DNA of 64,000 nucleotides from a virus. The stretch lies in IMG/VR virus record IMGVR_UViG_3300028027_000001; one strand, written 5' to 3'. Position 1 is the first letter of the stretch. Each line of letters opens with the position of its first letter. The notes under the pieces are model-generated. The model saw only the letters and a program-made list of their open reading frames with translations, had not been told where the DNA came from and did not search any database. Below, one piece after another: positions 35,621 through 53,806 of this stretch. The translations under genes and the position numbers were made by a program.

Positions 35621-35631
35621 ATCAATTAGTT

Positions 35632-36749: not shown

Positions 36750-36802
36750 AACCTTTATTTTTTAAATTTATACTGGAATATACGAATTTGTCGGTAATAA
36801 TC

Positions 36803-37078: not shown

Positions 37079-37082
37079 AGTC

Positions 37083-37463: not shown

Positions 37464-37530
37464 AATCTTTATTATTTATTAATTTTATACTTAAATATAC
37501 GAATTTATTCTGTAATAAACTTATCCTTTA

Positions 37531-37755: not shown

Positions 37756-37789
37756 AATTTTCATTTTAATTATAACCAAATATACGAAT

Positions 37790-37816
37790 AAAAAATGGAG
37801 AACTATTGTCCTCCAT
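37790..37816 (-). terminator. intrinsic terminator overlapping an early promoter
   Basis: ATGGAG-gacaatagtt-CTCCAT-TTTTT on the minus strand. Confidence 0.65.
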
Positions 37817-38087
37817 CAAAAATAATTTTTGTTATTTCATAGATGCTAGGTGCACCTACATCTCCAAATTCATTATAAATTGCTTCCATAATTTATTTTT
37901 TATTACTAAATGCATTACCAATTGCTAATAACATTAAAAATACAAAAAATGTTGTCCATTTATTATCTTGTATTGCTTCGAAAAATTCTCTCATTTATTT
38001 AAGTGTTCTGTTATTTTTATTCTAAACCTCTATCCCCGTATATTAACATTAAAATTTTATAATGTAATTTTTGTAAGTATCTTCTTA

Positions 38088-38297
38088 TCATTTGTCTAAA
38101 TGTTTAATTAATTTTTTTAAAACATCCCATTCTGTGAAATGAATTGAGAATTGCTGTTTATCACTTATAGTAACATCATAACCCTCTCCATTACTCCACT
38201 CTGTTACTTCAATAAAATCATATTCTTTATGATAAGGACCCCCCAATCGTGAATTAACGGCTCGTCGTTGATTTTCCTCTATTTTTAATTTACTCAT
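38088..38297 (-). CDS. hypothetical protein
   Basis: FIEVTEWSNGEGYDV motif. Confidence 0.7.
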   Translation of the reverse strand: MSKLKIEENQRRAVNSRLGGPYHKEYDFIEVTEWSNGEGYDVTISDKQQFSIHFTEWDVLKKLIKHLDK

Positions 38298-38298
38298 A

Positions 38299-39225
38299 TT
38301 ATAATGATTTAAAGTATTCAATAACTTCTTGTTCTGATTTTAGTACTTTCATCTCAATTCCTTTATCTTGAACATATTCTAAAGCAATCTCTGCTGAATT
38401 ATGAGCTCCATTTGCCCAACAGTTAGATGAAAACATATCAATCCAAGCATATCCATCATTACTTAAACGATGTAATTTATATGTACCCTGTTGTTTAAAT
38501 ATATAAACATAATCCCGATTATATTCGATTTGTGGAGGTGGATTTTTTAATAATCGTTCTAGTACTGGGAGTTGAGAGGCTGTTGCGGCTTTAAACATTT
38601 TACTAACCATTTCGTTATCAAACGTTACTTCGTTAGAAAACGTTCCGGTATTATCTAAAACATATTTATTAATTATTTTTTTCCAATCCGCACAAGCCAT
38701 ATCATAAATTTCCTTAACTTGCTCTCTTGTTAATATTTGTTTTTCCATAATTTTTCCCCACTTCCTTGTATTATCATCATATATAAGTCCGGTTCCTTCA
38801 CCTGATATTATATTAGATGGGCTGTATTTTCTAACTTCTTCTTTAACGATTTGATAATCTCCTGCTGTATTATAATATCTAGTACCAATTGGATAATATT
38901 TACGAGCATAGGCTAATCTACCTTCATTGGTTGTCATATCGAATACTTGATATGTCGCATCAAATGGTCCTTTGTATAACTCTACACCCTCAACACCAAT
39001 TAAACACTCATTTCCTTCTTCATCACGAACAGCTAACAAATCATCATTATTAGCATGCCATTCATGATCTGTAATAGCAAATATTGTTCCTATAGTATCG
39101 GTATCAAATGAATTATTTTGTGATGTAATTGTAAATCCTAATTCTTTAAATTTTTCGTTATAAGTTTCATATGTGTAGCCTGGGTCTTTAATTTTTACTT
39201 GATCTCCTACTTTAAATTTTTCCAT
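38299..39225 (-). CDS. multi-domain early hypothetical protein
   Basis: FKVGD N-terminus, ARKYYPIGT module; promoter at about 39251. Confidence 0.75.
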   Translation of the reverse strand: MEKFKVGDQVKIKDPGYTYETYNEKFKELGFTITSQNNSFDTDTIGTIFAITDHEWHANNDDLLAVRDEEGNECLIGVEGVELYKGPFDATYQVFDMTTNEGRLAYARKYYPIGTRYYNTAGDYQIVKEEVRKYSPSNIISGEGTGLIYDDNTRKWGKIMEKQILTREQVKEIYDMACADWKKIINKYVLDNTGTFSNEVTFDNEMVSKMFKAATASQLPVLERLLKNPPPQIEYNRDYVYIFKQQGTYKLHRLSNDGYAWIDMFSSNCWANGAHNSAEIALEYVQDKGIEMKVLKSEQEVIEYFKSL

Positions 39226-39285
39226 GATATATTTTTTAAATTTATACTTGAATATACGAATGATTTATTGAAAATAAACGTCCCT

Positions 39286-39627
39286 TTATCTATAAAATTC
39301 TTCATCGTTAATTTCCTCTTCCTCATCATCATATGAATCCCAATCATCTTTGATTTCCAATACATCGTCTAAATCTTCATCTTTGTACTCAGGGAGTAAA
39401 CCCATACGTTCGATGAGACGCCATACTCGTTCCTTAGTTTTGTCAATAGGTGTTCCTTCAATTTCGGTATAACCTTCAACAGTTAAATAAGCCAATTGAG
39501 CTAATAAGTCACACGTTAAATGATCCATTTCATTTAAATCATAGTTACCTGCATCAAATTTAGATTTGATAGTTAACCATTGTGTTTCAATTGTGTTGTT
39601 TTTTAATATACTTAATACTTTTGACAT
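39286..39627 (-). CDS. early hypothetical protein with acidic tail
   Basis: Promoter plus leader. Confidence 0.7.
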   Translation of the reverse strand: MSKVLSILKNNTIETQWLTIKSKFDAGNYDLNEMDHLTCDLLAQLAYLTVEGYTEIEGTPIDKTKERVWRLIERMGLLPEYKDEDLDDVLEIKDDWDSYDDEEEEINDEEFYR

Positions 39628-39696
39628 AACCTTTATTTTTAATTTTTTATTTATACTGAAATATACGATTTTAATTTAAAATTTTATTATCCTATT

Positions 39697-39924
39697 TTAG
39701 AACATTTTTAAATCTTTTAAATCTTTGTCTTGGATTGCACTTGCATAGAAGAAAATTAGTACTGCTAATTCAATTAATACTAATGTTGCAAAAAACATAG
39801 TAACTCCTATTAATGCATCCGATTCTAAACATAATTCATTTTTATACCATTGAAATAATAATGGTGATAGAAATACTTGTAAACTAACAAATATCGAATA
39901 ACCAATTGCTCTTAACCACTTCAT
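39697..39924 (-). CDS. small two-helix membrane protein
   Basis: Two hydrophobic segments. Confidence 0.6.
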   Translation of the reverse strand: MKWLRAIGYSIFVSLQVFLSPLLFQWYKNELCLESDALIGVTMFFATLVLIELAVLIFFYASAIQDKDLKDLKMF

Positions 39925-40090
39925 ATTTTTTAATTTAAATTATACCACTTATCTAAAGCGGCTTGTTGTTGTTTACTATCTAATTCGTCAAAAAACTTAT
40001 TGAATAGTTTTAATGAAACTTCATCTAAACTCATATTATTTCTTTTTAATTATACCTGAATATACGAATTAATTTTCAATAATCTTTGTC

Positions 40091-40321
40091 CTATTCAATA
40101 GGATCATTTAATAAGTAATCATTTGCTTCGTCTTCAAATGACCAATCATAATCTGTTATTAATTCTTTATCACATAAATCAATTTGAAACTTGATTAATT
40201 GGTCTCTAACTACATCGGTAATAACCTTCTTTAAATAGCTTTCTAATAGTATACCAACCGGGTTTCCTGTTTGGCCTAGTGATTGGAGGATGTCGTTGTT
40301 AATTTCTTCTATTGTTTTCAT
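40091..40321 (-). CDS. hypothetical protein
   Basis: ORF with AGGTTATG leader. Confidence 0.65.
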   Translation of the reverse strand: MKTIEEINNDILQSLGQTGNPVGILLESYLKKVITDVVRDQLIKFQIDLCDKELITDYDWSFEDEANDYLLNDPIE

Positions 40322-40374
40322 AACCTATTTATTTTAATTTATGCTGGAGTATACTAATGGGTATTTAATTATCT

Positions 40375-40620
40375 TTATCCCCCTGTAGTATACTTTCTTA
40401 CTAATTTAAAGATTTCTGTTATATCTGTAAATTCTATTTCTTTGTCATTCTTAATTGGGAAAAAAGCAATTGTAAAACCATGATTTGCTTGGAATGTTTC
40501 AGTTACTCGCTTACCATTAATGGAATTAATGTAGACCCATGGAAAATTACCTGCTAATTTAACATCAATTCCTAATAGTTTCATTCTATCTACAAATACT
40601 GTTAATTTATCTTTTTCCAC
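40375..40620 (-). CDS. hypothetical protein (GTG start)
   Basis: AAGGTT leader before GTG; GNFPWVY..SING..V.E.F..NHGFTIAF. Confidence 0.7.
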   Translation of the reverse strand: MEKDKLTVFVDRMKLLGIDVKLAGNFPWVYINSINGKRVTETFQANHGFTIAFFPIKNDKEIEFTDITEIFKLVRKYTTGG

Positions 40621-40632
40621 AACCTTTATTTA

Positions 40633-40872
40633 TTAATGTTTAACACCCACTTGAAGAACTTTAATTACGTCCTTTCTATTTAAAATATTTTCATTTAGAC
40701 TTACAAACTCCCACTTAAACTCATCTGTAAGTATGAAATGACCTAGTAATTCGTGTTCTGCTTGGTTAATTAAAAATTCAACAACTATTTTTTGATTCAT
40801 TGCTTTTCTTTTGTTTGCTCTACGAGTGATTCGCGATTCAATAGGATGTGGTATAATTTTTCTATTAGTCAT
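40633..40872 (-). CDS. early hypothetical protein
   Basis: Promoter at about 40899. Confidence 0.6.
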   Translation of the reverse strand: MTNRKIIPHPIESRITRRANKRKAMNQKIVVEFLINQAEHELLGHFILTDEFKWEFVSLNENILNRKDVIKVLQVGVKH

Positions 40873-40942
40873 AACTTTTTTATTTATTAATATGCTTGAA
40901 TATACGAAATATCTATTAATTTTTTATGTCCTTTATTGGTCT

Positions 40943-41140
40943 TTATATATCTCTTGTTAATCGTTCACTCATTAATTTAGTAAAACAATCTAAGTATCCT
41001 GATTGGTAATCAACTTCTTTTTGTTGAGTTTCCATTTCTTTACATTGTTTAAAATAAGAAGTAATCATTTCTAAATGCTCATCACTTAATTGAATTTGGT
41101 TTACAATTGCGTTGTAAAACTGTTCTACTGCTGTTTTCAT
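40943..41140 (-). CDS. MKTAVE-family small hypothetical protein
   Basis: Paralog of 46467-46670. Confidence 0.65.
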   Translation of the reverse strand: MKTAVEQFYNAIVNQIQLSDEHLEMITSYFKQCKEMETQQKEVDYQSGYLDCFTKLMSERLTRDI

Positions 41141-41145
41141 ATCTT

Positions 41146-41349
41146 TTATTTTACAAATTTCATAGGTATGGGGCTAACTGTATAATCATAAAATTCCATC
41201 ATTTTATCATAGCACCCAGTTAATTCACAACTATTCAAATACTTAATCCACGCTTTAATATATTTTAAACGATCTTTATGGTATATAACTTTCATCCCTC
41301 CTATATCGTTAACATAATTTCGTAATGTTTGTTTTGCTCTTGGTGTCAT
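41146..41349 (-). CDS. hypothetical protein
   Basis: ORF in array. Confidence 0.6.
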   Translation of the reverse strand: MTPRAKQTLRNYVNDIGGMKVIYHKDRLKYIKAWIKYLNSCELTGCYDKMMEFYDYTVSPIPMKFVK

Positions 41350-41361
41350 AATCTTATATTA

Positions 41362-41592
41362 TTAAGGGTTATTACCTTTTTCTGTGGAAATCCAATATGC
41401 AAATGGGGATGTGATGGCATCACTTGTTTCAATTGAGAACTTCCAAGGTTGATTATCATTTCCGTTACAATCCAGAGTGGCTATATTATTTTCCAGTTCA
41501 ATAATTTTTGCTTTTAATGGACTTGAATCTCTTCCTTTAATGAAAACTGTACTACCCACCCTAACATTTTTCAATTTATCTAAATAATTCAT
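41362..41592 (-). CDS. early hypothetical protein
   Basis: Promoter plus leader. Confidence 0.65.
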   Translation of the reverse strand: MNYLDKLKNVRVGSTVFIKGRDSSPLKAKIIELENNIATLDCNGNDNQPWKFSIETSDAITSPFAYWISTEKGNNP

Positions 41593-41642
41593 AACCTTTA
41601 TTTTTAATTATAACTAAATATACGAAGAAAAAAAGTGGAGAC

Positions 41643-42449
41643 TTAGGCCTCCACAAATTCACTTGCTATAGCATATAGCTGAGCATTTATTTTAATATCT
41701 TGTTGGAAATTTTTCACTTTACGTGCCTTTCTAATTTTAGTTCCAGACATGTAACTGAAATCACCACCCAATATTTTCTCTTGTATTCTGTTGAATACAG
41801 TAAATAAATCGTTTGGTTTATCCTCTACACGGATTGGTGTTAATAACGCATCTAAATCGATGTTAAGCGCATCAATTTCATCTTCCTCGAAACGTGTCGT
41901 TAATGAGCGTTTCGCTAAGTCTCGCGCCTGATCTTCGCTTAGTTGAGTTGATTTCATTTTATTCATTGATTCAACTGTCAATGGCAGTTGCTCTACCATG
42001 AATTTGATTTTTTCTTGTAATTCCTCAAATGTGTAGTTCATATGACGAATTCGTAATTTATCAAAATCTTGAGTTGATACCACTAGGCCGTTGCTACATA
42101 TTGCTCGGAAGATACCACTCTGAAATGTAAATGAACTAGAACCATCATGGGAATTTGAGATTAGGACGGTTGGGTATACCACATCCCCATCAGCACCGTT
42201 GATAACTAAATCAGGATTTCTGAATATTAATAGGTGTTTTTGGAAACCTTTTCTTTTTCTAGCTTTGATTTCTTTACACTCTGTAACGAAAAAATTCAAT
42301 TTTTCCATATCTTCAATCACCTGTGAAGTAGGGATATGAACATATTTTTCTGACATTCCATCCACTGCACTTTGGGTGAATACTGAAGGAGCTAATGATT
42401 TCATTTCATTTTGGCTCAAAAATTTTGTGTTGTCTAAATTTAAAAACAT
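41643..42449 (-). CDS. DUF932/DUF945 family protein
   Basis: APSVF......S.KY.HIPT, F.KHLL.FR, NSHDGSSSF.FQSGIFR.ICSNG, FNRIQE..L.G. Confidence 0.85.
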   Translation of the reverse strand: MFLNLDNTKFLSQNEMKSLAPSVFTQSAVDGMSEKYVHIPTSQVIEDMEKLNFFVTECKEIKARKRKGFQKHLLIFRNPDLVINGADGDVVYPTVLISNSHDGSSSFTFQSGIFRAICSNGLVVSTQDFDKLRIRHMNYTFEELQEKIKFMVEQLPLTVESMNKMKSTQLSEDQARDLAKRSLTTRFEEDEIDALNIDLDALLTPIRVEDKPNDLFTVFNRIQEKILGGDFSYMSGTKIRKARKVKNFQQDIKINAQLYAIASEFVEA

Positions 42450-42508
42450 AACCTTAATTTTTTAATTATTTATTTTATTTATACTTAAATATACGAATTA
42501 AATTCTAA

Positions 42509-43222
42509 TTAATTTTGTCCTTTTGTTTTTTCAGCATACTCCCATCTATAACCATGGGAAGTTTTCTGTTTTCCTTTCAATGCGCTAGTGATACCCCCAT
42601 TAGTGCCTTTATAACCTAAAGCATTTTCTGCCTGAGTTATTGAATCAAAACGTTGTATTATTTCTCCTTCTAAACTTAATTGATAAACTGGTTTGTTTTT
42701 CTTTTCAAAGAATGATGGTTTATGTTTTTTACCTCTTAATAAGTGGGACCTGTTAGGATATGTTCTAGATTTTCGGGTGGCTATGGTTTTATCTATGACT
42801 TCTTGGGGGACTTTATATCCTAATCTAGCTTTTGATTGGCGTTCCCTAGTTTCAATAGATCTCTTTTTCCCTTTATTAGATTGAGATCTTCTTTTATTTT
42901 GATCCTCAGTCCATACTATTCCCTTATTACCTCCTTCTCCCCCTTCACTAATGTTAACTAACATACCATTGGGATCTACATTTTTTCTCCCAAATTGTTT
43001 GATATAATTAATCTCCATTTCACATGCTTGTGATTTAGTTAAATTTTCATGAACTAATTTTACTGTGGGATCACCATGTTTTTCCACGTATCTTTTCCAT
43101 ATTGGGTTCCTCTCCCCAAAATTATAAGGTCTAGATTTAACTGATCCTATTCCTACATAAAATACTTCTTGTGTTGTAGGGTTTAGGTGAAAATAAACAA
43201 AATATATATTATCTTTTGACAT
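42509..43222 (-). CDS. GIY-YIG homing endonuclease with NUMOD3/NUMOD1 DNA-binding repeats
   Basis: VYFH...FYVGIG, E...I..FGR...LVN.SEGGEG, KGKKRS.ETRER.S, KPVYQ.SLEG.II..FDS...A; start revised to MSKDNIY. Confidence 0.85.
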   Translation of the reverse strand: MSKDNIYFVYFHLNPTTQEVFYVGIGSVKSRPYNFGERNPIWKRYVEKHGDPTVKLVHENLTKSQACEMEINYIKQFGRKNVDPNGMLVNISEGGEGGNKGIVWTEDQNKRRSQSNKGKKRSIETRERQSKARLGYKVPQEVIDKTIATRKSRTYPNRSHLLRGKKHKPSFFEKKNKPVYQLSLEGEIIQRFDSITQAENALGYKGTNGGITSALKGKQKTSHGYRWEYAEKTKGQN

Positions 43223-43444
43223 CGTTTTTGTATGGGAATATACAAAACGATATGTTAACATCCTAGTATTCTTTCTAAAAACCTTTACTTCTTTAATTAT
43301 TTTTATTATGAATCTCTTTTAGTTAATTTAACTCTAATTACTTCTCCTTGACCGACAATGATGTTGCCTATTTTAACTGACTTATCTTTAAGATAAAATG
43401 ATGTTACCTTACCGGCTCTATTCTTAACATATATGTAAGGCATA

Positions 43445-43696
43445 TTATTCTATAGATGTTAAATACTTTAAACAATCATCGATACATTCTTCTATGGTTT
43501 CAAATCCTTCCCAACAACATTCTGCCATAATAGCATTGCCTGGGAGTTGATGGTGTTTCCATATTATTCTATTTTCCCATTCACCACCCATTCGTTTAAT
43601 GGTATTTTGGAATGATATTGAATGTCCTGATTCAAATACTTGATTAAATTTTTCTGCTAGCATGTTATTTTGTCCTTTAATTATAACGTTAACCAT
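43445..43696 (-). CDS. hypothetical protein
   Basis: ORF in array; start uncertain. Confidence 0.6.
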   Translation of the reverse strand: MVNVIIKGQNNMLAEKFNQVFESGHSISFQNTIKRMGGEWENRIIWKHHQLPGNAIMAECCWEGFETIEECIDDCLKYLTSIE

Positions 43697-44070
43697 CCTC
43701 TATCAATTAAGTATCTAACAACACATTTTAGTTCTGATATTCCTTGTTTTGATAGTGATTCTTGAGCTGATTCTATGGATTCAATATCATTCTTTAATAC
43801 TCCTATTAAAAACTTATCGTTATCCCATATATCTTCAGTCCATTCTGTTCTATCAGAGTGCCGTTTATCAGTAAATTTAATAACAAGCCCGTCATAGAAC
43901 GTTTCATCATCTCGATACATTCTCTCTACTTCAAATACACACTCATCAGTTTCAAATGTTAACCCTTCAGTGTGAACTGGGTTTAGTTCGATGCTGTCTT
44001 CGGGTTGGGTTGGTTGTAAATCTTCTCTAACATACCAAACACCATTAATTTCTACTCTGTCCATAACCAT
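43681..44070 (-). CDS. early hypothetical protein
   Basis: INGVWYVRE motif; promoter upstream. Confidence 0.7.
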   Translation of the reverse strand: MVMDRVEINGVWYVREDLQPTQPEDSIELNPVHTEGLTFETDECVFEVERMYRDDETFYDGLVIKFTDKRHSDRTEWTEDIWDNDKFLIGVLKNDIESIESAQESLSKQGISELKCVVRYLIDRGWLTL

Positions 44071-44106
44071 TTTTATTTATTTTTTAATTTAACTGAATAT
44101 ACGGCT

Positions 44107-44301
44107 TTATTTTTGAGTAACTTTGTCCCTCACTAATCTTACGTATCCTGTTTTCTTAAATCTACATTTATCAAATGTCATTTCATACCCTAAATCACAT
44201 ACCACAGTATATCCGTGTTGTGTTTCAGCTAGTACTTGGTATTGTTGGTTTTTAGTTAAATAATCTTCCATTCCATTAATGTAGTTCCCGTAAACAATCA
44301 T
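44107..44301 (-). CDS. hypothetical protein
   Basis: ORF in array. Confidence 0.6.
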   Translation of the reverse strand: MIVYGNYINGMEDYLTKNQQYQVLAETQHGYTVVCDLGYEMTFDKCRFKKTGYVRLVRDKVTQK

Positions 44302-44327
44302 AATTAATCCGTTTTATTTAATTATAA

Positions 44328-44615
44328 CTATTTCTTTATTATTTCAAAGTTATTTAATTTTAACCATTCTAGGAATTCTACTACATCCCATTCTTTAGGA
44401 TCCAATTCCCCCATCACACCATCACCAAATTGTTCAATAAACCTATTCAAATATGAATTTTCTATTTCATCACTAAAGTGAAATTGATTATTATGAGTAA
44501 ATGCTAATGCAGTTGGTTCATTTTCAATATCTTCTTGGGTGGTTTGAGGTAATTTACCTTCTTCCCTCAATATGTCTATACGAGCAAATACTCGTGCTAT
44601 GTCTTCGTTATTCAT
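44328..44615 (-). CDS. hypothetical protein
   Basis: ORF in array. Confidence 0.65.
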   Translation of the reverse strand: MNNEDIARVFARIDILREEGKLPQTTQEDIENEPTALAFTHNNQFHFSDEIENSYLNRFIEQFGDGVMGELDPKEWDVVEFLEWLKLNNFEIIKK

Positions 44616-44621
44616 AATATA

Positions 44622-45155
44622 TTATCTTTCAATTCCTAATTCTTCTAATGTTACTGGAGTGTAGTCTACATGCTCACAAGATACGCAGTGGTACCTATCG
44701 TCAGGCACTTCAGTATAAGACATTCCCGTCATCCATTCATCAACCCACTGAGTTTTCATTATCCGTTCTTCATGTATATGTCCGTGTATATTTCTAGGTA
44801 CTCTAAATTCAAGTTCACGCTCATGTACAGGACAATGTGTTAACCATAACCCTTTATATCGAATCATCCCCGATACACTATGAACATATTTTAATAGTTC
44901 GGGTATGTCTTTAGCCATATCGTGGTTACCTAATACAACGCGTTTAAGTCCGTTCATTCTGTTTAGTAATGGGTATGGTTTACTGGATTCCATAGTTACA
45001 TCACCTAAGATATAAACTGTGTCACGTTTGGATACTTTCTTATTCCATTGTGAAATAATATGTTCGTCGTGTTCTTCGGCTGTAGAGAAACCACGTTTTT
45101 TAGCCATGTTTAAGTGGCCTAGATGTAGGTCTGCTATCATAAAAACTTTACTCAT
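44622..45155 (-). CDS. calcineurin-like metallophosphoesterase
   Basis: ADLHLGH, LGD, GNHD, THCP, HGHIH. Confidence 0.9.
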   Translation of the reverse strand: MSKVFMIADLHLGHLNMAKKRGFSTAEEHDEHIISQWNKKVSKRDTVYILGDVTMESSKPYPLLNRMNGLKRVVLGNHDMAKDIPELLKYVHSVSGMIRYKGLWLTHCPVHERELEFRVPRNIHGHIHEERIMKTQWVDEWMTGMSYTEVPDDRYHCVSCEHVDYTPVTLEELGIER

Positions 45156-45193
45156 AACTTTAATTTTTATTGAATATACGAACTATATTTTAA

Positions 45194-45646
45194 TTATTTT
45201 AGTCCTTCTCTCACTTCTTTAATATGTTTACAATTCTGTTTTGATCGAATGGCACCAAAACAATTACATTTTAATCCATTCGGTGTCATTCTTACCTCAT
45301 AAAAACCACCACCACTAGATGATTCAAATTTCCAGGTTTTAGGTTTTTCGATTGGTTTAGGTTCGGTAACCGGTTTTTCTCCAATAATATCTAAATCTTT
45401 GTATCGAGTGTGAGGAACACATTCAATTCCGTATGGAATTATTACCCATTTATTCAAAGCAGCATAATGTACAACGCCTATCGCTTTGGTAGGATGTTTA
45501 GGTACCTTATATTTGAACGGTTTATGATATGCGGACTGGATATTGTCGCGTTGTGGGTATAAAATGGCTTGCTCACCTGGTTTGGTGTGTATTATTTTGT
45601 GTTCGGTTCTACCGTCTTTGTATTCGATGTGGAGTTCGTGTAACAT
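45194..45646 (-). CDS. SWIM zinc-finger protein (start revised to MLHELH)
   Basis: YEV.....CNC........CKHI; promoter and leader lie inside the longer ORF call. Confidence 0.8.
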   Translation of the reverse strand: MLHELHIEYKDGRTEHKIIHTKPGEQAILYPQRDNIQSAYHKPFKYKVPKHPTKAIGVVHYAALNKWVIIPYGIECVPHTRYKDLDIIGEKPVTEPKPIEKPKTWKFESSSGGGFYEVRMTPNGLKCNCFGAIRSKQNCKHIKEVREGLK

Positions 45647-45701
45647 AACCTTTATTTTTATAAGTGGAATATACGAAAGGATTATCGGTAATAAGCGTCC
45701 T

Positions 45702-45902
45702 TTATTGGCTGTATTTCTCACTAGCTTTTAAGGCACTTGGAAGATAATCCCAACAACCACCTGTATTAACTTCTTTACCATTAACAGACATTATGGTATA
45801 GGCCCATTCATTATAGTGATTTTGTTCATGAATAATAACAGAATCCCCTTTTGAATTTTTAGTGTGGATTTTTCTGTAAGAAACATATTTATTTTTACCC
45901 AT
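45702..45902 (-). CDS. hypothetical protein
   Basis: ORF in array. Confidence 0.55.
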   Translation of the reverse strand: MGKNKYVSYRKIHTKNSKGDSVIIHEQNHYNEWAYTIMSVNGKEVNTGGCWDYLPSALKASEKYSQ

Positions 45903-45904
45903 GA

Positions 45905-46417
45905 TTAATTTATTTTAGGATTACTAATTAAATTAGATTCTTCACCCCAAGAAGTTACCATTAAAAAACCTCCTTTAACTTTGCAAAAGACTATAGGATC
46001 AGGATCAAATTCAGCCGCGGCTCCAAACATAGTATGTGGAGCTAAAATATGGAAATGTGCTATTATTGAAGAACCATCAGATAACCACTCTCCTTCTGTT
46101 AAGTATTTTTTATCAATTTTAAAATTAAGAATGTCTTGTATATTTTTATATGGTATTGAATAAATATAATTATTAGATGTTCTAAATCTTAAATTTTGGT
46201 TTTCTACTAAAATTTCATTTATATTTTCTTCAGTTACAAATGGATTTTGAGGGAATAATAATTCATATACTCTAATTAAATCTTTAAACTCTTCTCGAAT
46301 TAAAAAATCATCAACTGTGGTTGTTTTATTAAACCCTAAATCAATAAGTTTTTTACAATCATCAATTGTTAACTCATTGGATTGTTTAATTTTTTCTAAA
46401 ACTAATTCTTTTAACAT
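45905..46417 (-). CDS. hypothetical protein
   Basis: DPIVFC.VKGGFL.VTSWG.E motif. Confidence 0.75.
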   Translation of the reverse strand: MLKELVLEKIKQSNELTIDDCKKLIDLGFNKTTTVDDFLIREEFKDLIRVYELLFPQNPFVTEENINEILVENQNLRFRTSNNYIYSIPYKNIQDILNFKIDKKYLTEGEWLSDGSSIIAHFHILAPHTMFGAAAEFDPDPIVFCKVKGGFLMVTSWGEESNLISNPKIN

Positions 46418-46466
46418 AACCTTTATTTTTTGTAAGTGAAATATATGATATTATTAGGGATAATTA

Positions 46467-46670
46467 TTAGATGCTATTATTGTATGTTTCACTGTAATAC
46501 TTATACCCTGTTTTAAATTCCTCTTCTTGTAGTTTTGCCTCTACCTTACCACATCTGTACGCGCGTACTATTTGGTGTTTTTCCATTTGAAATGCTTGAT
46601 CAACTAAATCAGATTCAATAAATCTTGTTTTATGTATTTCAGATATTAACCATTCTACTGCTGTTTTCAT
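46467..46670 (-). CDS. MKTAVE-family small hypothetical protein
   Basis: MKTAVEWL...QA..MEK.QI..AY..G...YY.ETY. Confidence 0.7.
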   Translation of the reverse strand: MKTAVEWLISEIHKTRFIESDLVDQAFQMEKHQIVRAYRCGKVEAKLQEEEFKTGYKYYSETYNNSI

Positions 46671-46724
46671 ATTTTTTTATTTGATTAAATATACGAAAGG
46701 ATTATCGGTAATAGACGTCCTTTA

Positions 46725-46994
46725 TCATTTATTTTTATATTCGTCAATATAATAAGCACAACCAAAAATTAACCCTACTAATAGTAAAATTCTATCAACC
46801 CAAGTTGCACCTACGAAAGGTAGTGGAAAGTGTGTGGGTAATTTCCCCGTTACAAAACTACCAATGATTAATAAACTATACATCAAACCATAGAATGCAT
46901 AGAATGGTGCTAGAACCATATGAAATACATTTATGTATTTAAATAATGTTTTAAAGAACATTACAATACCTAGTGAATTAAATAAATCTTTCAT
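46725..46994 (-). CDS. membrane protein (start revised to MKDLFNSLG)
   Basis: Multiple TM segments; promoter and terminator lie in the 5' extension. Confidence 0.65.
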   Translation of the reverse strand: MKDLFNSLGIVMFFKTLFKYINVFHMVLAPFYAFYGLMYSLLIIGSFVTGKLPTHFPLPFVGATWVDRILLLVGLIFGCAYYIDEYKNK

Positions 46995-47028
46995 AACTTT
47001 TAATTTTATAGGTGAAATATATGAATAA

Positions 47029-47054
47029 AAAATGGAGAACAAACGTCCTCCATT
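47029..47054 (-). terminator. intrinsic terminator overlapping an early promoter
   Basis: AATGGAG-gacgtttgtt-CTCCATT-TTTT. Confidence 0.65.
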
Positions 47055-47138
47055 AAAATCCAAGATAGTTAGCTCATTTCTATCCCACGTGTTTGTTCGG
47101 AAGTTCACTCTCCTTGATATGCATTGTGTGGTGGATTT

Positions 47139-47354
47139 TTATAATTTAAAAAATCGTTTTTTATAAAAACTGTGTGGTGATTGTACATCATCATGCCATT
47201 CATCGTATGGCCGAGCATGGAAGCCACCAAATGATAATGATTTGTAAATAACTAATACTTCATCTGTTGTTGTGTGGTTACACATTCCAACTATTTCGTA
47301 CTGGCCCCCTTTATAGTGCTGCCAAATTTCTCCTGGTTGTGGGTATTTTTTCAT
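47139..47354 (-). CDS. DUF1653 family protein
   Basis: PG..WQHYKGG.Y......HT.T.E.LVIY.SL....ARP. Confidence 0.85.
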   Translation of the reverse strand: MKKYPQPGEIWQHYKGGQYEIVGMCNHTTTDEVLVIYKSLSFGGFHARPYDEWHDDVQSPHSFYKKRFFKL

Positions 47355-47358
47355 AATT

Positions 47359-47847
47359 TTAATGGTTTACTATATTTTGTAGTGCATTGTGAATTGCATT
47401 ATATCGTGAAGCATATTCTAAATATTCTTCTTCTGGTATTTGTGTGTATTCTTTTAATTGTTTTTCAGTATATGATGAATTAACATGTCCTGATTCAAAT
47501 TCTCTGTGATTAACACCCATTATGGAATTAAAATTATATATATCACCGTTTAATGCATAAGTGCGTTCCCATCTGTCTGTATATGATTCTGGGTTAATTG
47601 ATTTGATATACATAACAGATAATTCTGTTGCACCAAACCTGCTATCATTATCATGAAATTTTAAATATACATTTGTATATCTTTTAATTACCTTATTATC
47701 TTGTTTTATAAGATTTTCTTCATATTTCTCAATATTACTACTAGCTTTTTCTAATAAATCTTTTACTGACATGTTTTTATCAATATCAGAATTTTCTAAT
47801 ATTTCAATTAATTGTCTACTTTTACGAATATTTACAACATCTTTCAT
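47359..47847 (-). CDS. hypothetical protein
   Basis: ORF in operon. Confidence 0.7.
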   Translation of the reverse strand: MKDVVNIRKSRQLIEILENSDIDKNMSVKDLLEKASSNIEKYEENLIKQDNKVIKRYTNVYLKFHDNDSRFGATELSVMYIKSINPESYTDRWERTYALNGDIYNFNSIMGVNHREFESGHVNSSYTEKQLKEYTQIPEEEYLEYASRYNAIHNALQNIVNH

Positions 47848-47859
47848 AATTTTATTTTT

Positions 47860-48054
47860 CTATAATTTTATTGATTTAATTTCTCCAGTTTTAACAAACT
47901 CCTCTAACAACTCAACAAATTTAATTGCAATTTGTTTTTTTAATGCTTTTTTCTTTTTACGAGGTAAAAATTCTAATTGTATCACCTCGGGAATAAATGG
48001 TACTAGCATTTCAGTTTCGAAATACAATTTCTTTTTAGTTACTTTTGCTTTCAT
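47860..48054 (-). CDS. small basic hypothetical protein
   Basis: LPRKKKKALKK; coupled ORF. Confidence 0.6.
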   Translation of the reverse strand: MKAKVTKKKLYFETEMLVPFIPEVIQLEFLPRKKKKALKKQIAIKFVELLEEFVKTGEIKSIKL

Positions 48055-48886: not shown

Positions 48887-49108
48887 TTATTTTAATTTAT
48901 TTAAACAGTTTTTACATAGTATATCTTCAGAAATAATTTCTCTAGTGGGTTCTTTTAAAGGTAAATATAAAGCCCAATTCACATTTTCATATTGAATATA
49001 AGCCCAATTAAAATTTCTTGATTTAACATTGCATAGGGAGGCATTATTTGTAGTTCCTTCGAATAGATGCCACTTTTTGCTGGTAATACCTAAATTATAT
49101 TTTTTCAT
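48887..49108 (-). CDS. small putative zinc-binding protein
   Basis: WH...LC...CKNC. Confidence 0.6.
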   Translation of the reverse strand: MKKYNLGITSKKWHLFEGTTNNASLCNVKSRNFNWAYIQYENVNWALYLPLKEPTREIISEDILCKNCLNKLK

Positions 49109-49311
49109 GACTTCATATCTAATTTTAATCTGTTGATAGGCAATAAACTGATTTGTTTATATTCTCTGCTATTTGGATATGGTTGATAAGTAGCTGATGG
49201 GTGGATACAATAGGCCTCATTGTTATTGGTTGGGTTTAATCCTATAAAAATAAAAGTTAATCCACCCGCATATTTAACTCTATCACCATTCTTAAAATCT
49301 ATATTTTCCAT
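49105..49311 (-). CDS. hypothetical protein
   Basis: Coupled ORF. Confidence 0.6.
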   Translation of the reverse strand: MENIDFKNGDRVKYAGGLTFIFIGLNPTNNNEAYCIHPSATYQPYPNSREYKQISLLPINRLKLDMKS

Positions 49312-49317
49312 AACTTT

Positions 49318-49602
49318 TTATTTTATTGCATTAGATAATTGTGATTGAGCTTCTAGATAAACATCATTGAAATGTTTTTCTGTAGTTAAGCATGTTTCAA
49401 AAATATAATTTTCTACTTGGAAATTCTCCTCTATGGATATAGTTAATTGATTCCATTCGTGTTTAATGGTGATTTTGTTATGTTCTGTAATTTTAACCAA
49501 TTCATCTAGACCCATTTCATCCTGAAAATATAAATACACGGGTAAATCTAAATTTGTTTCAATTTCTTCTACTTTTCTTTTAATTACTTTTAGTTTACTC
49601 AT
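49318..49602 (-). CDS. early hypothetical protein
   Basis: Promoter plus leader. Confidence 0.7.
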   Translation of the reverse strand: MSKLKVIKRKVEEIETNLDLPVYLYFQDEMGLDELVKITEHNKITIKHEWNQLTISIEENFQVENYIFETCLTTEKHFNDVYLEAQSQLSNAIK

Positions 49603-49801
49603 AACCTTATTTTTGATTGAATATACGAAAAAATATTTGGTAAGACAAATGAAGGCGACAATTTCTTGCCGCCTTACTTACTAGGTCACCGATGCCTCCT
49701 AGCGTGATGGGTTATTTAATGTCATTTTGTCTAATTTCACTTTACGTGACATAGTCGCAGGGTCCCATTTAACTGACAAAACCCGATTCGGTATTAAGGT
49801 G

Positions 49802-49909
49802 TAGTTAGGACAGGATTCGAACCTGTGCAGGGTGTCATCCCCCGGAGCATCTAAAGTTTTGACGTACTTATTATTGAGCTCCTGCATTACCACTTTCTGC
49901 CATCTAACT
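49802..49909 (-). ncRNA. tRNA-like element C (108 nt; 29-nt anticodon loop, long variable arm)
   Basis: AGTTAGA/CCTAACT acceptor, GCA/TGC D-stem, GGAGC/GCTCC stem, GGGG/CCCT variable arm, ACAGG-TTCGAAT-CCTGT T-arm, A73. Confidence 0.75.
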
Positions 49910-50053
49910 ATTCCATAAATTGGTTCCGTAAGCATTTTTTGATATTGAAATTCTTATTACTACAAAAGGCAGTTGAATAACAATTTGCCCATCATAACAA
50001 ATACCTAAAGTTATTTGCCATTTTCTATAAATGCTTAATCTATATTCTCCCAT
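49904..50053 (-). CDS. 49-aa hypothetical protein inside the ncRNA cluster
   Basis: Manual translation MGEYRLSIYRKWQITLGICYDGQIVIQLPFVVIRISISKNAYGTNLWNS; A-rich leader. Confidence 0.5.
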   Translation of the reverse strand: MGEYRLSIYRKWQITLGICYDGQIVIQLPFVVIRISISKNAYGTNLWNS

Positions 50054-50074
50054 TATATTTATTTTAATTTTTAG

Positions 50075-50140
50075 TAGTTAGGATAGGAATTGAACCTACT
50101 GCCGATTTTTCACGAGGGCCACCATTGCCACTACCTAACT
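50075..50140 (-). ncRNA. tRNA-like element D (66 nt; no recognisable anticodon arm)
   Basis: AGTTAGG/CCTAACT acceptor, GGC/GCC D-like stem, GTAGG-TTCAATT-CCTAT T-arm, A73. Confidence 0.65.
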
Positions 50141-50259
50141 TTAAACCAAATGCTTTAGTCGCCCGGAATCCATCTGGGGCTTATTACTAGATAACTTGTA
50201 GCTTACTTACCATGGTTCATACCGTTGCTACTAGGAAACCCAACATTGCATTTTATTAG

Positions 50260-50370
50260 TGGTGAGAACAGGACTCGAACCTATATGATAGCTGCAAGCA
50301 GTCTCCACGCTGGATACATTTTAGTGCACCATAACTATCTTTTCGCGTCTACCAATTCCGCCATCTCACC
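50260..50370 (-). ncRNA. tRNA-like element E (111 nt; tRNA-Leu-type D arm, replaced middle)
   Basis: GGTGAGA/TCTCACC acceptor, TGGCGGAATTGGTAGACGCG D arm, ATAGG-TTCGAGT-CCTGT T-arm, A73. Confidence 0.75.
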
Positions 50371-50538
50371 TTAATTACAGTAGGTTGTAAGGTACTTGTT
50401 AGTTAGACTTTCTCTTACCCCTTTATTAACCTGTATCAAAAATTTTTATTTTGGACCTAACTGGTGGAAACTTGAAAAAACCACCTCACGTATAGTACAC
50501 TCACCTAAGAACTACCAAAGACTTATGCCTAACTGTCG

Positions 50539-50617
50539 TAGTCAGATTAGGACTCGAACCTAAATTAAGATGCCTATTGGACTCATACTTCTCCTATTCC
50601 AATTAGAGGATCTGACT
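50539..50617 (-). ncRNA. tRNA-like element F (79 nt; irregular anticodon arm)
   Basis: AGTCAGA/TCTGACT acceptor, CTC/GAG D-stem with GG, TTAGG-TTCGAGT-CCTAA T-arm, A73. Confidence 0.7.
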
Positions 50618-50782
50618 ATAAAAAACAGGAAGCACCTGTTCAGATCTTGGACACTAGTATACTTATCCTCCTGTTTCGCCACCCATGCCTTTGGGTCAAT
50701 CTGTTTTGTAGTTTTATGTTTTCACATCTACATGACTTTAACTACAAAAGTACGCGTAGTAATTTAATTCCCCACGCGGAAT

Positions 50783-50859
50783 GAGGTTGAGAGCCTCTGT
50801 GTTGTAATATATCAATTTAACATTCTTAATATTTATTCACTTCTCACATGAACAACACA
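50783..50859 (-). ncRNA. kissing-loop RNA motif copy 1
   Basis: TGTGTTGT/ACAACACA stem, TGAGAA loop, terminal GAGG-CTCTCAA-CCTC hairpin. Confidence 0.6.
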
Positions 50860-50946
50860 TATAACCAGTCGCTCGCTTTAGAGTCAGCCACCCACTAATG
50901 GATCGCACAGGAATCTAATTTCTCACACCTGTACTGATTATTATTT

Positions 50947-51040
50947 GAGGTTGAGAACCACTGTGTTGTGAGTAAGATTCTTACTTTTCAGTATGTTTCT
51001 CTCCTTTACCTTCTTACGCCTTTCTCAAGGGAACAACACA
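50947..51040 (-). ncRNA. kissing-loop RNA motif copy 2
   Basis: TGTGTTGT/ACAACACA stem, TTGAGAA loop, terminal GTGG-TTCTCAA-CCTC hairpin. Confidence 0.6.
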
Positions 51041-51067
51041 TTTCTTTTTATACCTAAATATACGAAT

Positions 51068-51295
51068 TTATTCTGTAATCTCCAAATTTTCTTCTTCAAT
51101 AATCTCAGCTTCTTGAACTGTTTCTACAAATAAATAATGTGTTTCATTTCGTAAAACATGATCAACAAATGGTAAATAGTCTCTCCATGCCTTAATTTTG
51201 TCGGCATCTAATTGACCGTCTTTATTAATAAAGAACGTGTGAGCAATGCGTCTTCTTACAAGATAACATCGATCATTGTGTTTGTATAGTTCCAT
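51068..51295 (-). CDS. hypothetical protein
   Basis: ORF in operon. Confidence 0.7.
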   Translation of the reverse strand: MELYKHNDRCYLVRRRIAHTFFINKDGQLDADKIKAWRDYLPFVDHVLRNETHYLFVETVQEAEIIEEENLEITE

Positions 51296-51297
51296 GT

Positions 51298-51555
51298 TTA
51301 AATCACGTTAATTTTAGTTACTTTATACTGTCTCATGTATCGATCAACAAACGACTTTCCAACACCTAAATCAATAACTTCATATTCGTTAGGAATCAGT
51401 GGTTTACGTTTTGATGAATCTAATACCTCATCTACAGTTACGTTTTGAAACGTAGATATAAATTGTCTTTTACCTTTTTTTAATACAACAACGGTTGTGA
51501 TTGGTTCTTCTGATGGGCGACCTTTACCCGATGTCTGTTGAGTGTATGGATTCAT
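51298..51555 (-). CDS. hypothetical protein
   Basis: Promoter plus leader; GKGRP motif. Confidence 0.7.
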   Translation of the reverse strand: MNPYTQQTSGKGRPSEEPITTVVVLKKGKRQFISTFQNVTVDEVLDSSKRKPLIPNEYEVIDLGVGKSFVDRYMRQYKVTKINVI

Positions 51556-51612
51556 AACCTTTATTATTTATTAATTTTATACCTGAAATATACGAATAGG
51601 ATATTTGGTTTC

Positions 51613-52659
51613 CTAGTCTTTGATAATCATCTTTTTAGAGTCGATTACTTTATTGTCAACTATTAATCGGTAATAGTAGATTCCTGCAGGTAAATGTTCT
51701 TTTTCAATTTCAATTTTGTTTTTTTCAGGGTCTAATTCATATTTTAAATTAAAATTAGCATAAGTAGAATACTTAATGTCAATGTATGATTTTGAATGTT
51801 TAGGGACAATATATTCAATTACTGTTGAGTATTTGAATGGGTTTGGGTAATTTTGACCTAGTTTAGGTACAACTGTATCCTGTTTGTCTAGTATGGATTG
51901 GTTAGGTTTTAAATAATCAACTAAAATGGATTTTGATTGAACACACCCATTTTTATCTGTTACATTTACCAAATAAGTTCCCGCTTTTATTGTTTTTAGG
52001 TTTTGTGTTTTAGCACCATTACTCCAAGAATATGAGTATGGTGGTGTACCATAATTAACACTTATTGATATTGAACCATTACTAGCTGTTTTAGTGTTCG
52101 GTTTAATAACAGTTTCATCAATTGTCATTGGTGTTAAAGTATCTATAACATAATGAAAACCAACAGTTTCCATAGTACATCCCTTAGAATCAACTACTCT
52201 AACCCTATATGCACCCGCTCCCACATTTCCAGTATTTGAAATGAATGGTTTATTGTTCCTATCAAAATAATAGAATGTATATGGAAACAACCCACCACTA
52301 ACAAAATTTTCCATATGAGATAAACCACCAGGACAAACTATTGGGGTAAATGTTGTTGTTAATCTAAGCTTAAGTGGTTGTGGAATTGAGTCAGAAACTG
52401 TTTTAACACATCCCTTGGTGTCTGTTACCTTAACCGTATATTTACCCGCCTTAGATTGCAGATTCTGCGCATTATACCCGTTAGACCACTCATATTTGTA
52501 TGGGCCTGTTCCACCATCTACTTTAGTTAGTAATATTTTCCCATCTCCACCAAAACAATTTGCTGATACTGGTTTGGCTGTTACAATCATTTTTGAACAA
52601 TCTTGAGTATAGGAAATGAAGGGGGTTAGAAAAATAGCAATTAAAGTAGATAGTTTCAT
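51613..52659 (-). CDS. secreted SprB-repeat protein with T9SS type A C-terminal sorting domain
   Basis: Sec signal peptide; three repeats C.G...G.I....GGT.PY.Y.WSNG.......AG.Y.V.VTD.KGC; C-terminal LGQNYPNPF...LPAGIYYYRL......KKMII. Confidence 0.9.
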   Translation of the reverse strand: MKLSTLIAIFLTPFISYTQDCSKMIVTAKPVSANCFGGDGKILLTKVDGGTGPYKYEWSNGYNAQNLQSKAGKYTVKVTDTKGCVKTVSDSIPQPLKLRLTTTFTPIVCPGGLSHMENFVSGGLFPYTFYYFDRNNKPFISNTGNVGAGAYRVRVVDSKGCTMETVGFHYVIDTLTPMTIDETVIKPNTKTASNGSISISVNYGTPPYSYSWSNGAKTQNLKTIKAGTYLVNVTDKNGCVQSKSILVDYLKPNQSILDKQDTVVPKLGQNYPNPFKYSTVIEYIVPKHSKSYIDIKYSTYANFNLKYELDPEKNKIEIEKEHLPAGIYYYRLIVDNKVIDSKKMIIKD

Positions 52660-53770: not shown

Positions 53771-53806
53771 CTTATTTATTTTTTAATTATGCTTGAATAT
53801 ACGAAC

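Follow-up and report, generated by a model that had tools for sequence, protein, structure and literature searches.

Why does a Bacteroidota-type phage carry six small genes that keep the upper body of a tRNA, mostly of leucine type, but have unrelated sequence where the codon-reading arm should be? This question is raised by a stretch of 64,000 nucleotides (IMG/VR record IMGVR_UViG_3300028027_000001), hereafter called the window, in which a sequence-only reading had described six minus-strand elements of 66–124 nt with an intact top half and an expanded, replaced or deleted anticodon arm. They had been interpreted as non-decoding tRNA scaffolds, acting as decoys for anticodon nucleases or synthetases, as chargeable non-ribosomal carriers or as processing tags.

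Six tRNA-shaped elements on the minus strand

In order to test this description, we first examined the six elements directly in the sequence. The observation was confirmed: all six are present with the positions, strand and lengths given (Table 1). Each has a 7-position acceptor stem, GG in the D loop, a 5-bp T stem and A at position 73 followed by C, and none encodes CCA. The previously described details of C (a 29-nt loop), D (no anticodon arm) and E (a Leu-type D arm followed by a long unrelated stem) hold as well.

Table 1. Elements A–F and the terminator-like hairpins bordering the C–F cluster, with scores of the covariance model R1 (see text).
Feature	Coordinates	Strand	Length (nt)	Acceptor stem	D arm	Middle	T arm	3' end	R1 bits (E value)	Remarks
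A	33221–33321	-	101	TGTTAGG/CCTAATA (G2.U71)	loop with AATTGG, no paired D stem	about 49 nt	GCAGG-TTCGAAT-CCTGT	A73 then CA	34.8 (3e-7)	
B	33087–33210	-	124	TGTTAGG/CCTAACA	stem GTGT/ACAC	5-bp stem GATGG/CCATC closing a 39-nt loop; long variable-arm hairpin	same as A	A73 then CA	40.8 (7e-9)	
C	49802–49909	-	108	AGTTAGA/CCTAACT (inner A7.C66 mismatch)	3-bp stem	5-bp stem GGAGC/GCTCC closing a 29-nt loop; variable arm	ACAGG-TTCGAAT-CCTGT	A73 then CA	47.8	
D	50075–50140	-	66	AGTTAGG/CCTAACT	short, GGC-AATGGTG-GCC	17-nt linker, no anticodon arm	GTAGG-TTCAATT-CCTAT	A73 then CT	15.7 (about 0.05)	minimal form
E	50260–50370	-	111	GGTGAGA/TCTCACC	GGCGGAATTGGTAGACGC, identical to the family consensus	60-nt insert closed by GATAGTT/AGCTATC	ATAGG-TTCGAGT-CCTGT	A73 then CT	72.1 (2e-17)	
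F	50539–50617	-	79	AGTCAGA/TCTGACT	loop AATTGG	about 27 nt, no credible anticodon loop	TTAGG-TTCGAGT-CCTAA	A73 then CG	25.9 (8e-5)	
Hairpin upstream of F	50623–50641	-								terminator-like, 7-bp stem followed by a T run; directly upstream of F, upstream edge of the F-E-D-C non-coding cluster
Hairpin downstream of C	49652–49675	-								terminator-like, 10-bp stem, 5 G-C pairs, T-rich tail; about 125 nt downstream of C, likely end of the cluster's transcript

Next, we asked whether the elements could be decoding tRNAs. ARAGORN in default mode found no tRNA in the whole window, and a 5-bp anticodon stem closing a 7-nt loop with U33 and a purine at position 37 was not found in the elements. At a lowered threshold, F was called tRNA-Gly(tcc), but with a stem of two Watson-Crick pairs, two G.U pairs and one mismatch, and with G instead of U at position 33. 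Against the Rfam tRNA model (RF00005, gathering score 29 bits), C reached 33.8 and E 36.2 bits, but only by skipping insertions of 29 and 53 nt, respectively, whereas D stayed below the cut-off with 26.3 bits and A, B and F were not reported at E ≤ 10, so that the gathering score does not decide the matter for the set. The unconstrained fold of B gives a cloverleaf with an expanded loop.

It could be assumed that at least some of the elements are true tRNA genes interrupted by short introns, as B and C keep a 5-bp anticodon-type stem and a variable arm, and ARAGORN in intron mode called C tRNA-Leu(tag) with a 22-nt intron and, at a lowered threshold, also B and E. However, this mode proved uninformative, since it called a tRNA in 89 of 98 real members of the family described below and in 91 of 98 versions with shuffled inserts, with anticodons scattered over all amino acids. 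The proposed intron in C sits at 32/33 and not at 37/38, Rfam searches found no intron family, the inserts of 16–74 nt are far too short for group I introns, the only tRNA introns known in bacteria and phages, and D and F have nothing to splice. We therefore consider spliced tRNAs very unlikely.

Other RNAs with a tRNA-like part were compared one by one. tmRNA likewise joins a tRNA-like top half to pseudoknots and does not decode through an anticodon, but it has G3.U70 alanine identity, no D stem, a tag reading frame and a length of about 260–400 nt, none of which is present here; position 3-70 is U-A in A–D and F and also in E, the tmRNA mode of ARAGORN found no gene and there was no RF00023 hit in the window. 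The tRNA mimic of YrlA and bacterial Y RNAs is placed at the distal end of a Ro-binding stem formed by the 5' and 3' ends, whereas here these ends form the acceptor stem itself, and the best RF02553 score was 13.9 bits against a gathering score of 69.

A phage RNA family with a constant frame and a variable middle

To test whether the six elements belong to a wider group, we built a covariance model (R1) from 48 elements of other phage contigs. With filters off, its six best hits in the window were exactly A–F, although D is marginal, and the next hit scored 12.2 bits. The exact D-arm and T-arm pattern with a 41–71-nt gap occurred in at least 120 IMG/VR contigs, and the 120 unique inserts fell into 103 unrelated clusters. 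A non-tRNA insert in place of the anticodon and variable arms is present in A, B, C and E (about 49–74 nt), whereas F and D are short or minimal forms.

The frame of this family is clearly constrained. Of 100 elements chosen only by their D and T arms, 88 have 7/7 acceptor pairs, across 36 stem variants; U8 is present in 100%, A73 in 82% (11% have G73) and C after A73 in 92%. Six of the seven acceptor pairs show double-sided changes, with 98.9% of cells paired. The position-48 equivalent is U in 84 of 87 unrelated inserts (97%), although the search left this position free. U8 and A73 followed by C are found in all six window elements, but the base before the T stem is U in A, E and F and A, C and A in B, C and D, respectively, which leaves agreement with the family at this position unsettled. 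The same applies to the consensus Leu-type D arm (GGCGGAAUUGGUAGACGC), which is identical in E and recognisably related in C, while B, D and F have other D arms and A has none that pairs; the window thus gives no clear answer here.

The inserts were analyzed as a population. They fold better than dinucleotide shuffles (mean z −0.70, p 8e-10) and have stronger, pseudoknot-like crossing helices (z +0.84, p 4e-9), with 28% in the top 5% of their own shuffles. Compensatory changes occur in insert helices and pseudoknots, and one insert type keeps an invariant 8-nt loop on at least four different acceptor stems in 17 contigs while its own stem changes. TTTT is depleted in the inserts (1 observed against 8.6 expected), which fits read-through transcription. 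The window's own inserts are not individually convincing: whole-element fold z-scores range only from −0.06 to −1.49, and the inserts of C and E have no hit in IMG/VR, so they have no covariation support of their own.

Ordinary tRNAs at the orthologous loci of close relatives, without preferential conservation of the acceptor and T arms, had been named beforehand as the outcome that would speak for random decay. This is not what we found. A and B are kept in a related contig (L020), A with one change in the T loop and B with two, one of which turns G.U into A-U in the variable-arm hairpin. D occurs in contigs of four metagenome runs, and its two changes both preserve pairs (G.U to G-C in the T stem, G-C to G.U in the D stem). 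In contigs 97.7% identical across 49895–50289, the middles of C and E are replaced while the flanks and D are kept; the stretch 49827–49894 of C and the sequence beyond 50289 in E are unlike those of the window. Two further contigs, L010 and L011, share one element but have unrelated inserts in the neighbouring one. The absence of a canonical tRNA from the window, the broken D stem of A, the acceptor mismatch of C and the marginal score of D could be taken as signs of functionless tRNA pseudogenes. Acceptor pairing maintained through many double-sided changes, the pair-preserving changes in B and D, the same architecture in at least 120 phage contigs and the annotation of T5 RNA1 (see below) as a stable RNA make decay a very unlikely explanation.

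Relation to the stable RNAs of T5 and T4

The closest known RNAs are T5 RNA1 and RNA2 (NC_005859, misc_RNA T5s03 30501–30644 and T5s06 32959–33083), annotated as “tRNA-like stable RNA with unknown functions” and located in the tRNA, small-RNA and micro-ORF region of a lytic phage. RNA1 has a Leu-type D arm (CCGGAATTGGTAGACGG), a T arm and an insert of about 85 nt, and scores 38.9 bits with R1, above T5's own tRNA-Leu. RNA2 has a T arm identical to that of A and B and a paired acceptor, but was not reported by R1 at E ≤ 0.01. The acceptor stems and inserts of both are unrelated in sequence to those of the window, and their stability is taken from the annotation and was not tested here. Of the T4 stable RNAs, encoded at the end of the tRNA cluster, rnaC (species 1, 139 nt) scores 25.8 bits: its 3' 92 nt form an acceptor-like stem and a canonical T arm (CCGGG-TTCGAAT-CCCGG) with a non-tRNA middle, but it carries a 5' extension of about 45 nt outside the tRNA-like part and has no Leu-type D arm, so that the resemblance is weaker than for T5 RNA1. 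T4 rnaD (species 2) was not matched by R1. The window elements share the architecture of a tRNA-like acceptor and T arm with a non-tRNA middle, although no canonical tRNA lies next to them; whether they accumulate as discrete RNAs was not measured, as no RNA run containing this DNA was listed for 49000–51600, which says nothing either way, and RNA ends and CCA addition were likewise not examined.

The acceptor stem, U8, 3-bp D stem with an AAUUGGUAGA loop, U48, T arm and A73 of the frame are those of class II tRNA-Leu. Some contigs, such as L011, carry a canonical tRNA-Leu(UAA) on the same acceptor and T arm as their anticodon-less copies, and R1 also hits the tRNA-Leu of T4 and T5. What distinguishes the elements is the lack of a 7-nt anticodon loop with U33.

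Stable tRNA-like RNAs of T4 and T5 have been known since the 1970s–80s without an assigned function. Our results show that they are not oddities of two coliphages but members of a very large family with a constant, covarying tRNA-Leu frame and an exchangeable, structured middle, which also includes an unannotated 156-nt member in the tractable Caulobacter phage Cr30 (81134–81289). A literature search, which did not extend to the T4 genome review (PMC150520), found no description of this family; a 2026 preprint on three bacterial tRNA-mimic families (skipping-rope, DUF2693-FD, salivarius-1) concerns other RNAs, and the SPP1 genome paper does not mention a tRNA-like RNA.

Possible roles of frame and insert

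Taken together, the earlier interpretation is partly supported: the elements are non-decoding tRNA-shaped RNAs kept by selection and not decayed tRNAs, but none of our data separated the four proposed roles. A decoy for anticodon nucleases gets no support, as the inserts hold anticodon-arm-like hairpins no more often than shuffled inserts do. The main feature had also been missed, since the middle is not just expanded, replaced or deleted but is a swappable, often pseudoknotted module that evolves under its own structural constraint.

Our preferred reading, to which we assign a probability of roughly 0.55, is that the elements are genes for RNAs built on a tRNA “chassis”, mostly of leucine-tRNA type, in which a cargo module takes the place of the anticodon arm. 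The parts kept by the frame (acceptor stem, U8/D-loop/U48 core, T arm and A73) are those read by RNase P, the 3'-end trimming enzymes and the CCA-adding enzyme. In this view, each RNA would be cut out of a longer transcript, capped with CCA and folded into a nuclease-resistant L shape, as in the engineered tRNA scaffold for recombinant RNA, in which the tRNA top half gives processing and stability and the cargo replaces the anticodon stem-loop, a laboratory construct and not a natural family, similar in how it works and not in descent. The cargo would be the working part, exchanged between phages by recombination at the constant halves, and would most likely bind host or rival-phage factors in a fast-evolving conflict. 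Whereas the frame with its conservation and covariation, the structured and swappable inserts and the family membership follow directly from our analysis, transcription, processing, stability and any function of the cargo are inferences. If correct, phages use the tRNA-processing machinery of the cell to manufacture many different small RNAs, which would be a new layer of phage-host conflict and a natural version of a tool of RNA engineers. A more far-reaching version, which we consider unlikely, is a modular RNA “display” system, in which dozens to hundreds of pseudoknotted aptamer or decoy cargos are shuffled into one universal tRNA-Leu frame that recruits the host's tRNA-maturation enzymes, forming a fast-evolving arsenal against host defences or rival phages as the RNA counterpart of anti-defence protein islands. 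This would also explain the T4 and T5 stable RNAs.

Several features do not fit easily with a cargo. D has almost none, yet it is the copy of its cluster best kept across the four metagenome runs, suggesting that the frame alone can be useful, and the strict conservation of Leu-type identity features (A73, U8, A14/A15 region, U48) goes beyond what processing alone would seem to need. Alternatively, the frame itself could be the effector, with RNAs that are chargeable by LeuRS or at least bind tRNA-handling proteins, acting as sponges or non-ribosomal aminoacyl carriers, while the insert only has to abolish decoding and keep a compact fold. Leucine identity for E. coli LeuRS is defined by A73 and the tertiary core and not by the anticodon, and a compact-fold requirement alone could also give some covariation in the inserts. 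However, six copies with different middles in one genome are hard to explain if the middle is filler, and the invariant loop of one insert type, the members with G73 and the window's own copies, which mostly depart from the consensus Leu D arm, also speak against this possibility, which we regard as rather unlikely.

The surroundings of the elements were examined as well. C–F form a 1-kb ORF-poor block in which the elements alternate with 119–168-nt spacers and a 49-codon ORF, and the spacers and the ORF are 97.7% conserved in relatives. T5 shows the same layout of tRNA-like RNAs, other stable RNAs and micro-ORFs. This would be compatible with processing punctuation, in which the tRNA-like folds are RNase P and 3'-end cleavage sites that cut a polycistronic early transcript into micro-ORF mRNAs and other small RNAs, as tRNAs do in mitochondria, and the excised elements are by-products; the minimal form D would be enough for this role. 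Nevertheless, we consider it improbable, because an acceptor/T minihelix would suffice for cleavage although the D arm and U48 core are kept, and structured, covarying inserts conserved within types are not expected of by-products. Furthermore, A and B are back to back, 9 nt apart, with nothing between them to release, and the stop codon of the 49-codon ORF lies inside C, so that cleavage at the 5' end of C would remove it.

Finally, we searched for hints at what any cargo does, and none was obtained. Among 98 unrelated inserts, no shared motif was found beyond weak 3'-end preferences, with SD-like GGAG only mildly enriched (z 2.4), and an Rfam search of 20 loci holding 71 long elements returned only tRNA and one tmRNA. 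Antisense or duplicate matches of the six inserts elsewhere in the window reached at most 13 nt, which is chance level. The commonest neighbouring ORF cluster is present in only 17 of about 140 loci, the top clusters being unnamed, a metallophosphatase, a sigma-like protein or DUF932, and the neighbours in the window include no tRNA-handling enzyme. A blastn search of the 2.5-kb region against cultured phages gave no match, single elements matched only through the D arm or T arm to tRNA-Leu genes and unannotated sites, and the nearest cultured relative by baseplate protein, Flavobacterium phage vB_FspM_immuto, has no R1 hit. A and F both contain a CCAATAG segment complementary to their own D loop, which was considered as an alternative fold but may be a coincidence.

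Genomic context and detection of the six elements

The 64,000-nucleotide stretch has a G + C content of about 31%, and all of its long ORFs lie on the minus strand. A baseplate wedge protein is 45% identical to that of Flavobacterium phage vB_FspM_immuto, and other genes include a Hoc-like/SprB-repeat protein with a type IX secretion sorting domain, a thymidylate synthase and a homing endonuclease. This is a large myovirus, probably of a Bacteroidota host. An ORF with SprB repeats and a type IX secretion C-terminal sorting domain lies just upstream of the RNA cluster, which points to a gliding Bacteroidota host.

The sequence-only reading had described six tRNA-like elements (A-F) in this DNA, and this observation is confirmed: all six were found at the places and with the lengths it had assigned to them. 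Each has a 7-position acceptor stem, a D loop with GG, a 5-bp T stem with a TTCGAAT, TTCAATT or TTCGAGT loop, and A73 followed by C, with no encoded CCA. In its default mode, ARAGORN finds no tRNA in the 64 kb. The Rfam tRNA model reaches its threshold only for C and E, and only by skipping 29 and 53 nt in the anticodon region, whereas D scores below threshold and A, B and F are not reported. B and C fold as class II cloverleaves whose anticodon loop is 39 and 29 nt long, respectively. E has the textbook Leu-type D arm followed by a 60-nt insert, D (66 nt) has no anticodon arm at all, and F has about 27 nt with no credible anticodon loop. The middles of A and F both contain CCAATAG, complementary to the AATTGG of their own D loop, which is either a possible alternative pairing or a coincidence.

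In order to assess membership of the six elements, we built a covariance model (R1) from 48 elements of other contigs, which holds acceptor, D and T helices only and from which the window was excluded. With filters off, R1 returned exactly the six elements as its top hits in the window, with scores of 72.1, 47.8, 40.8, 34.8, 25.9 and 15.7 bits, while the next hit scores 12.2 bits; D is marginal. The 168-nt spacer between F and E was not hit by R1 and has no T arm, but it begins with AGTTAGG and ends with TCTAACT-AAC, so that its ends could pair like an acceptor stem. It may be a decayed or different small RNA, and contigs of the metagenome run X4 contain it at about 85% identity.

Coordinates of the features discussed in the text
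Feature	Sequence	Coordinates	Strand
Element A	Window	33221-33321	-
Element F	Window	50539-50617	-
Spacer between F and E	Window	50371-50538	-
49-codon ORF between D and C	Window	49904-50053	-
ORF with SprB repeats and type IX secretion sorting domain	Window	51613-52659	-
Region compared with metagenome contigs	Window	49500-50900	
Stretch 97.7% identical in one relative	Window	49895-50289	
Region compared with L020 for the recurrent intergenic sequence	Window	28000-48000	
Recurrent intergenic sequence, example sites (near)	Window	36746-36787, 39234-39260, 53775-53805	
tRNA with anticodon UUA	L022	5263-5343	+
tRNA with anticodon UUA	L171	4827-4920	+
Family member, Caulobacter phage Cr30	L174 (= Cr30 81134-81289)	1495-1650	+
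Family member, isolate genome	L170	6332-6430	+
Family member, isolate genome	L172	6449-6550	-
tmRNA gene on a phage contig	L115	2481-2885	-

A large family with a constant frame and a variable middle

Next, we investigated how widespread this architecture is. Searching IMG/VR for the 21-nt T-arm/acceptor of A-C gave 25 contigs, and in nearly all of them the same 3' half is preceded by a Leu-type 5' half and a 25-110-nt middle that differs from contig to contig; ARAGORN saw a tRNA in only 4 of the 25. Requiring only the consensus D arm and T arm with a 41-71-nt gap yielded at least 120 contigs. Among 149 such elements, there were 120 unique inserts in 103 unrelated clusters. Many of these contigs hold the elements inside ordinary tRNA arrays. 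On the same AGTCAGG-type or Leu-type frame, ARAGORN calls a tRNA with anticodon UUA (which reads the UAA stop) at the loci L022 and L171, and this may be a leucine-frame ochre suppressor sitting next to anticodon-less copies. The same exact pattern occurs in only 6 of 185,579 species genomes, four of them Bacteroidota, and this frame subtype is therefore essentially phage-borne. Members of the family occur in the genomes of two isolates, Chryseobacterium sp. Alg-005 and Sphingobacterium sp. UT-1RO-CII-1 (loci L170 and L172), which were not examined for prophages at these sites. A full-length tmRNA gene (75.9 bits) lies about 400 nt from a tRNA-frame RNA on the phage contig L115.

The frame is under selection. 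In 100 unique elements chosen without reference to their acceptor stem, 88 pair at all seven positions, across 36 stem variants; U8 is invariant, A73 is present in 82%, and the next base is C in 92%. In the alignment analyzed (A2), six of the seven acceptor pairs show double-sided changes, and 98.9% of cells are paired, compared to about 35% when the partner is slid. The base just before the T stem, which is the equivalent of position 48 and the partner of A15 in the tRNA core, is U in 84 of 87 unrelated inserts, although the search left it free. The whole tertiary core of a tRNA is therefore kept, not just a minihelix. With regard to these elements as dead pseudogenes, we consider this explanation unlikely.

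The middle is neither junk nor an intron. As a population, 98 unrelated inserts fold better than dinucleotide shuffles (mean z -0.70, p 8e-10) and have stronger crossing, pseudoknot-type helix pairs (mean z +0.84, p 4e-9), with 28% lying in the top 5% of their own shuffles. Small insert families show compensatory changes in hairpins and H-type pseudoknots. One cargo type, found in 17 contigs on at least four different acceptor stems, keeps an invariant 8-nt loop while two stem pairs change on both sides, and all of its cells are paired. TTTT, GATC and CTAG are depleted in the inserts. Anticodon-arm-like hairpins are no commoner than in shuffled inserts (9 of 98 against 9.3 of 98). The intron mode of ARAGORN, which the sequence-only reading had put forward as a check, “finds” a tRNA in 89 of 98 real and 91 of 98 shuffled versions, with anticodons for every amino acid. 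Its call of C as tRNA-Leu(tag) with a 22-nt intron therefore carries no weight, and spliced tRNAs are, in our view, an improbable explanation.

Exchange of the middles at orthologous sites

Orthologous loci in close relatives had been proposed in advance as the comparison that could reveal random decay. While no RNA run containing this DNA was found, DNA contigs from four lake or subsurface metagenome runs could be aligned to the region of the C-F cluster. One relative is 97.7% identical over a stretch covering the first 15 nt of C, a 49-codon ORF, D, a spacer and the last 30 nt of E. In that relative, the middle of C is skipped or replaced, and the sequence beyond E's T arm is unlike the window. 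The 49-codon ORF ends with its TAG stop 6 nt inside element C, so that RNase P-type cleavage at C's 5' end would remove the stop codon. D is kept in all four runs, and its two changes turn G.U into G-C in the T stem and G-C into G.U in the D stem. Many other contigs join C's T arm to E's D arm with 25-40 unrelated letters between them; these are further family members in those lakes.

In IMG/VR, the loci L010 and L011 share an identical element but carry unrelated inserts on the same frame next to it. A and B are kept almost unchanged in the related locus L020, and one of B's two changes is pair-improving; however, the flanks there are equally conserved, so that comparison says little. The inserts of C and E were not found in IMG/VR. 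The comparison with L020 also showed that a short sequence of about 40-60 nt recurs at many intergenic sites of the window's early region and in L020, and it looks like a repeated promoter or regulatory box.

Possible roles and relation to described phage RNAs

The design matches a tRNA frame that carries cargo. The constant parts are those read by RNase P, the 3'-trimming enzymes and the CCA-adding enzyme, and they give the compact L shape, while the variable part sits where a laboratory “tRNA scaffold” carries its passenger. In contrast to the selection on the frame and the structured, exchanged middles, which we derive from the sequence comparisons, this assignment of enzymes and shape rests on established knowledge and was not put to a test in this study. 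Three features point to the cargo as the working part and to an arms-race role, namely several copies with different middles in one genome, structural constraint within cargo types, and rapid exchange between relatives. We assign this reading a probability of roughly 0.55.

The main alternative, which we regard as possible but considerably less likely, is that the frame itself matters, as a LeuRS-chargeable or enzyme-binding RNA. It draws on the strict Leu-type features and on D, which has no cargo yet is the most conserved copy. A punctuation role in cutting up a polycistronic transcript fits the layout between two terminator-like hairpins but does not explain the conserved core or the structured inserts, and we consider it doubtful. 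The interpretation given by the sequence-only reading is supported in part: the elements are non-decoding, selected tRNA-shaped RNAs, as it had inferred, but the specific roles it suggested (decoys for anticodon nucleases or synthetases, chargeable non-ribosomal carriers, or processing tags) were not tested, and the anticodon-nuclease decoy is not favoured. Our searches for hints to a function revealed no shared motif among the inserts, no Rfam family in the cargo, no antisense target within the window, no recurrent neighbouring protein and no tRNA-handling enzyme nearby.

Comparing our results to annotated phage RNAs, T5 RNA1 and RNA2 are listed in the T5 record as “tRNA-like stable RNA with unknown functions”. 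RNA1 has a Leu-type D arm, a T arm and an insert of about 85 nt, and it scores 38.9 bits with R1, above T5's own tRNA-Leu, whereas RNA2 has the same T arm as A and B. The 3' 92 nt of T4 rnaC have an acceptor-like stem and a T arm and score 25.8 bits. RNAs of this kind are therefore known, but only as isolated, unexplained RNAs, and our literature search found no paper describing the family or its swappable middles. The family is of real interest to RNA and phage biologists, although its function is still to be assigned. An unannotated 156-nt member, at 40 bits, lies in Caulobacter phage Cr30, a cultured phage of a model bacterium, and here the CCA end is encoded.
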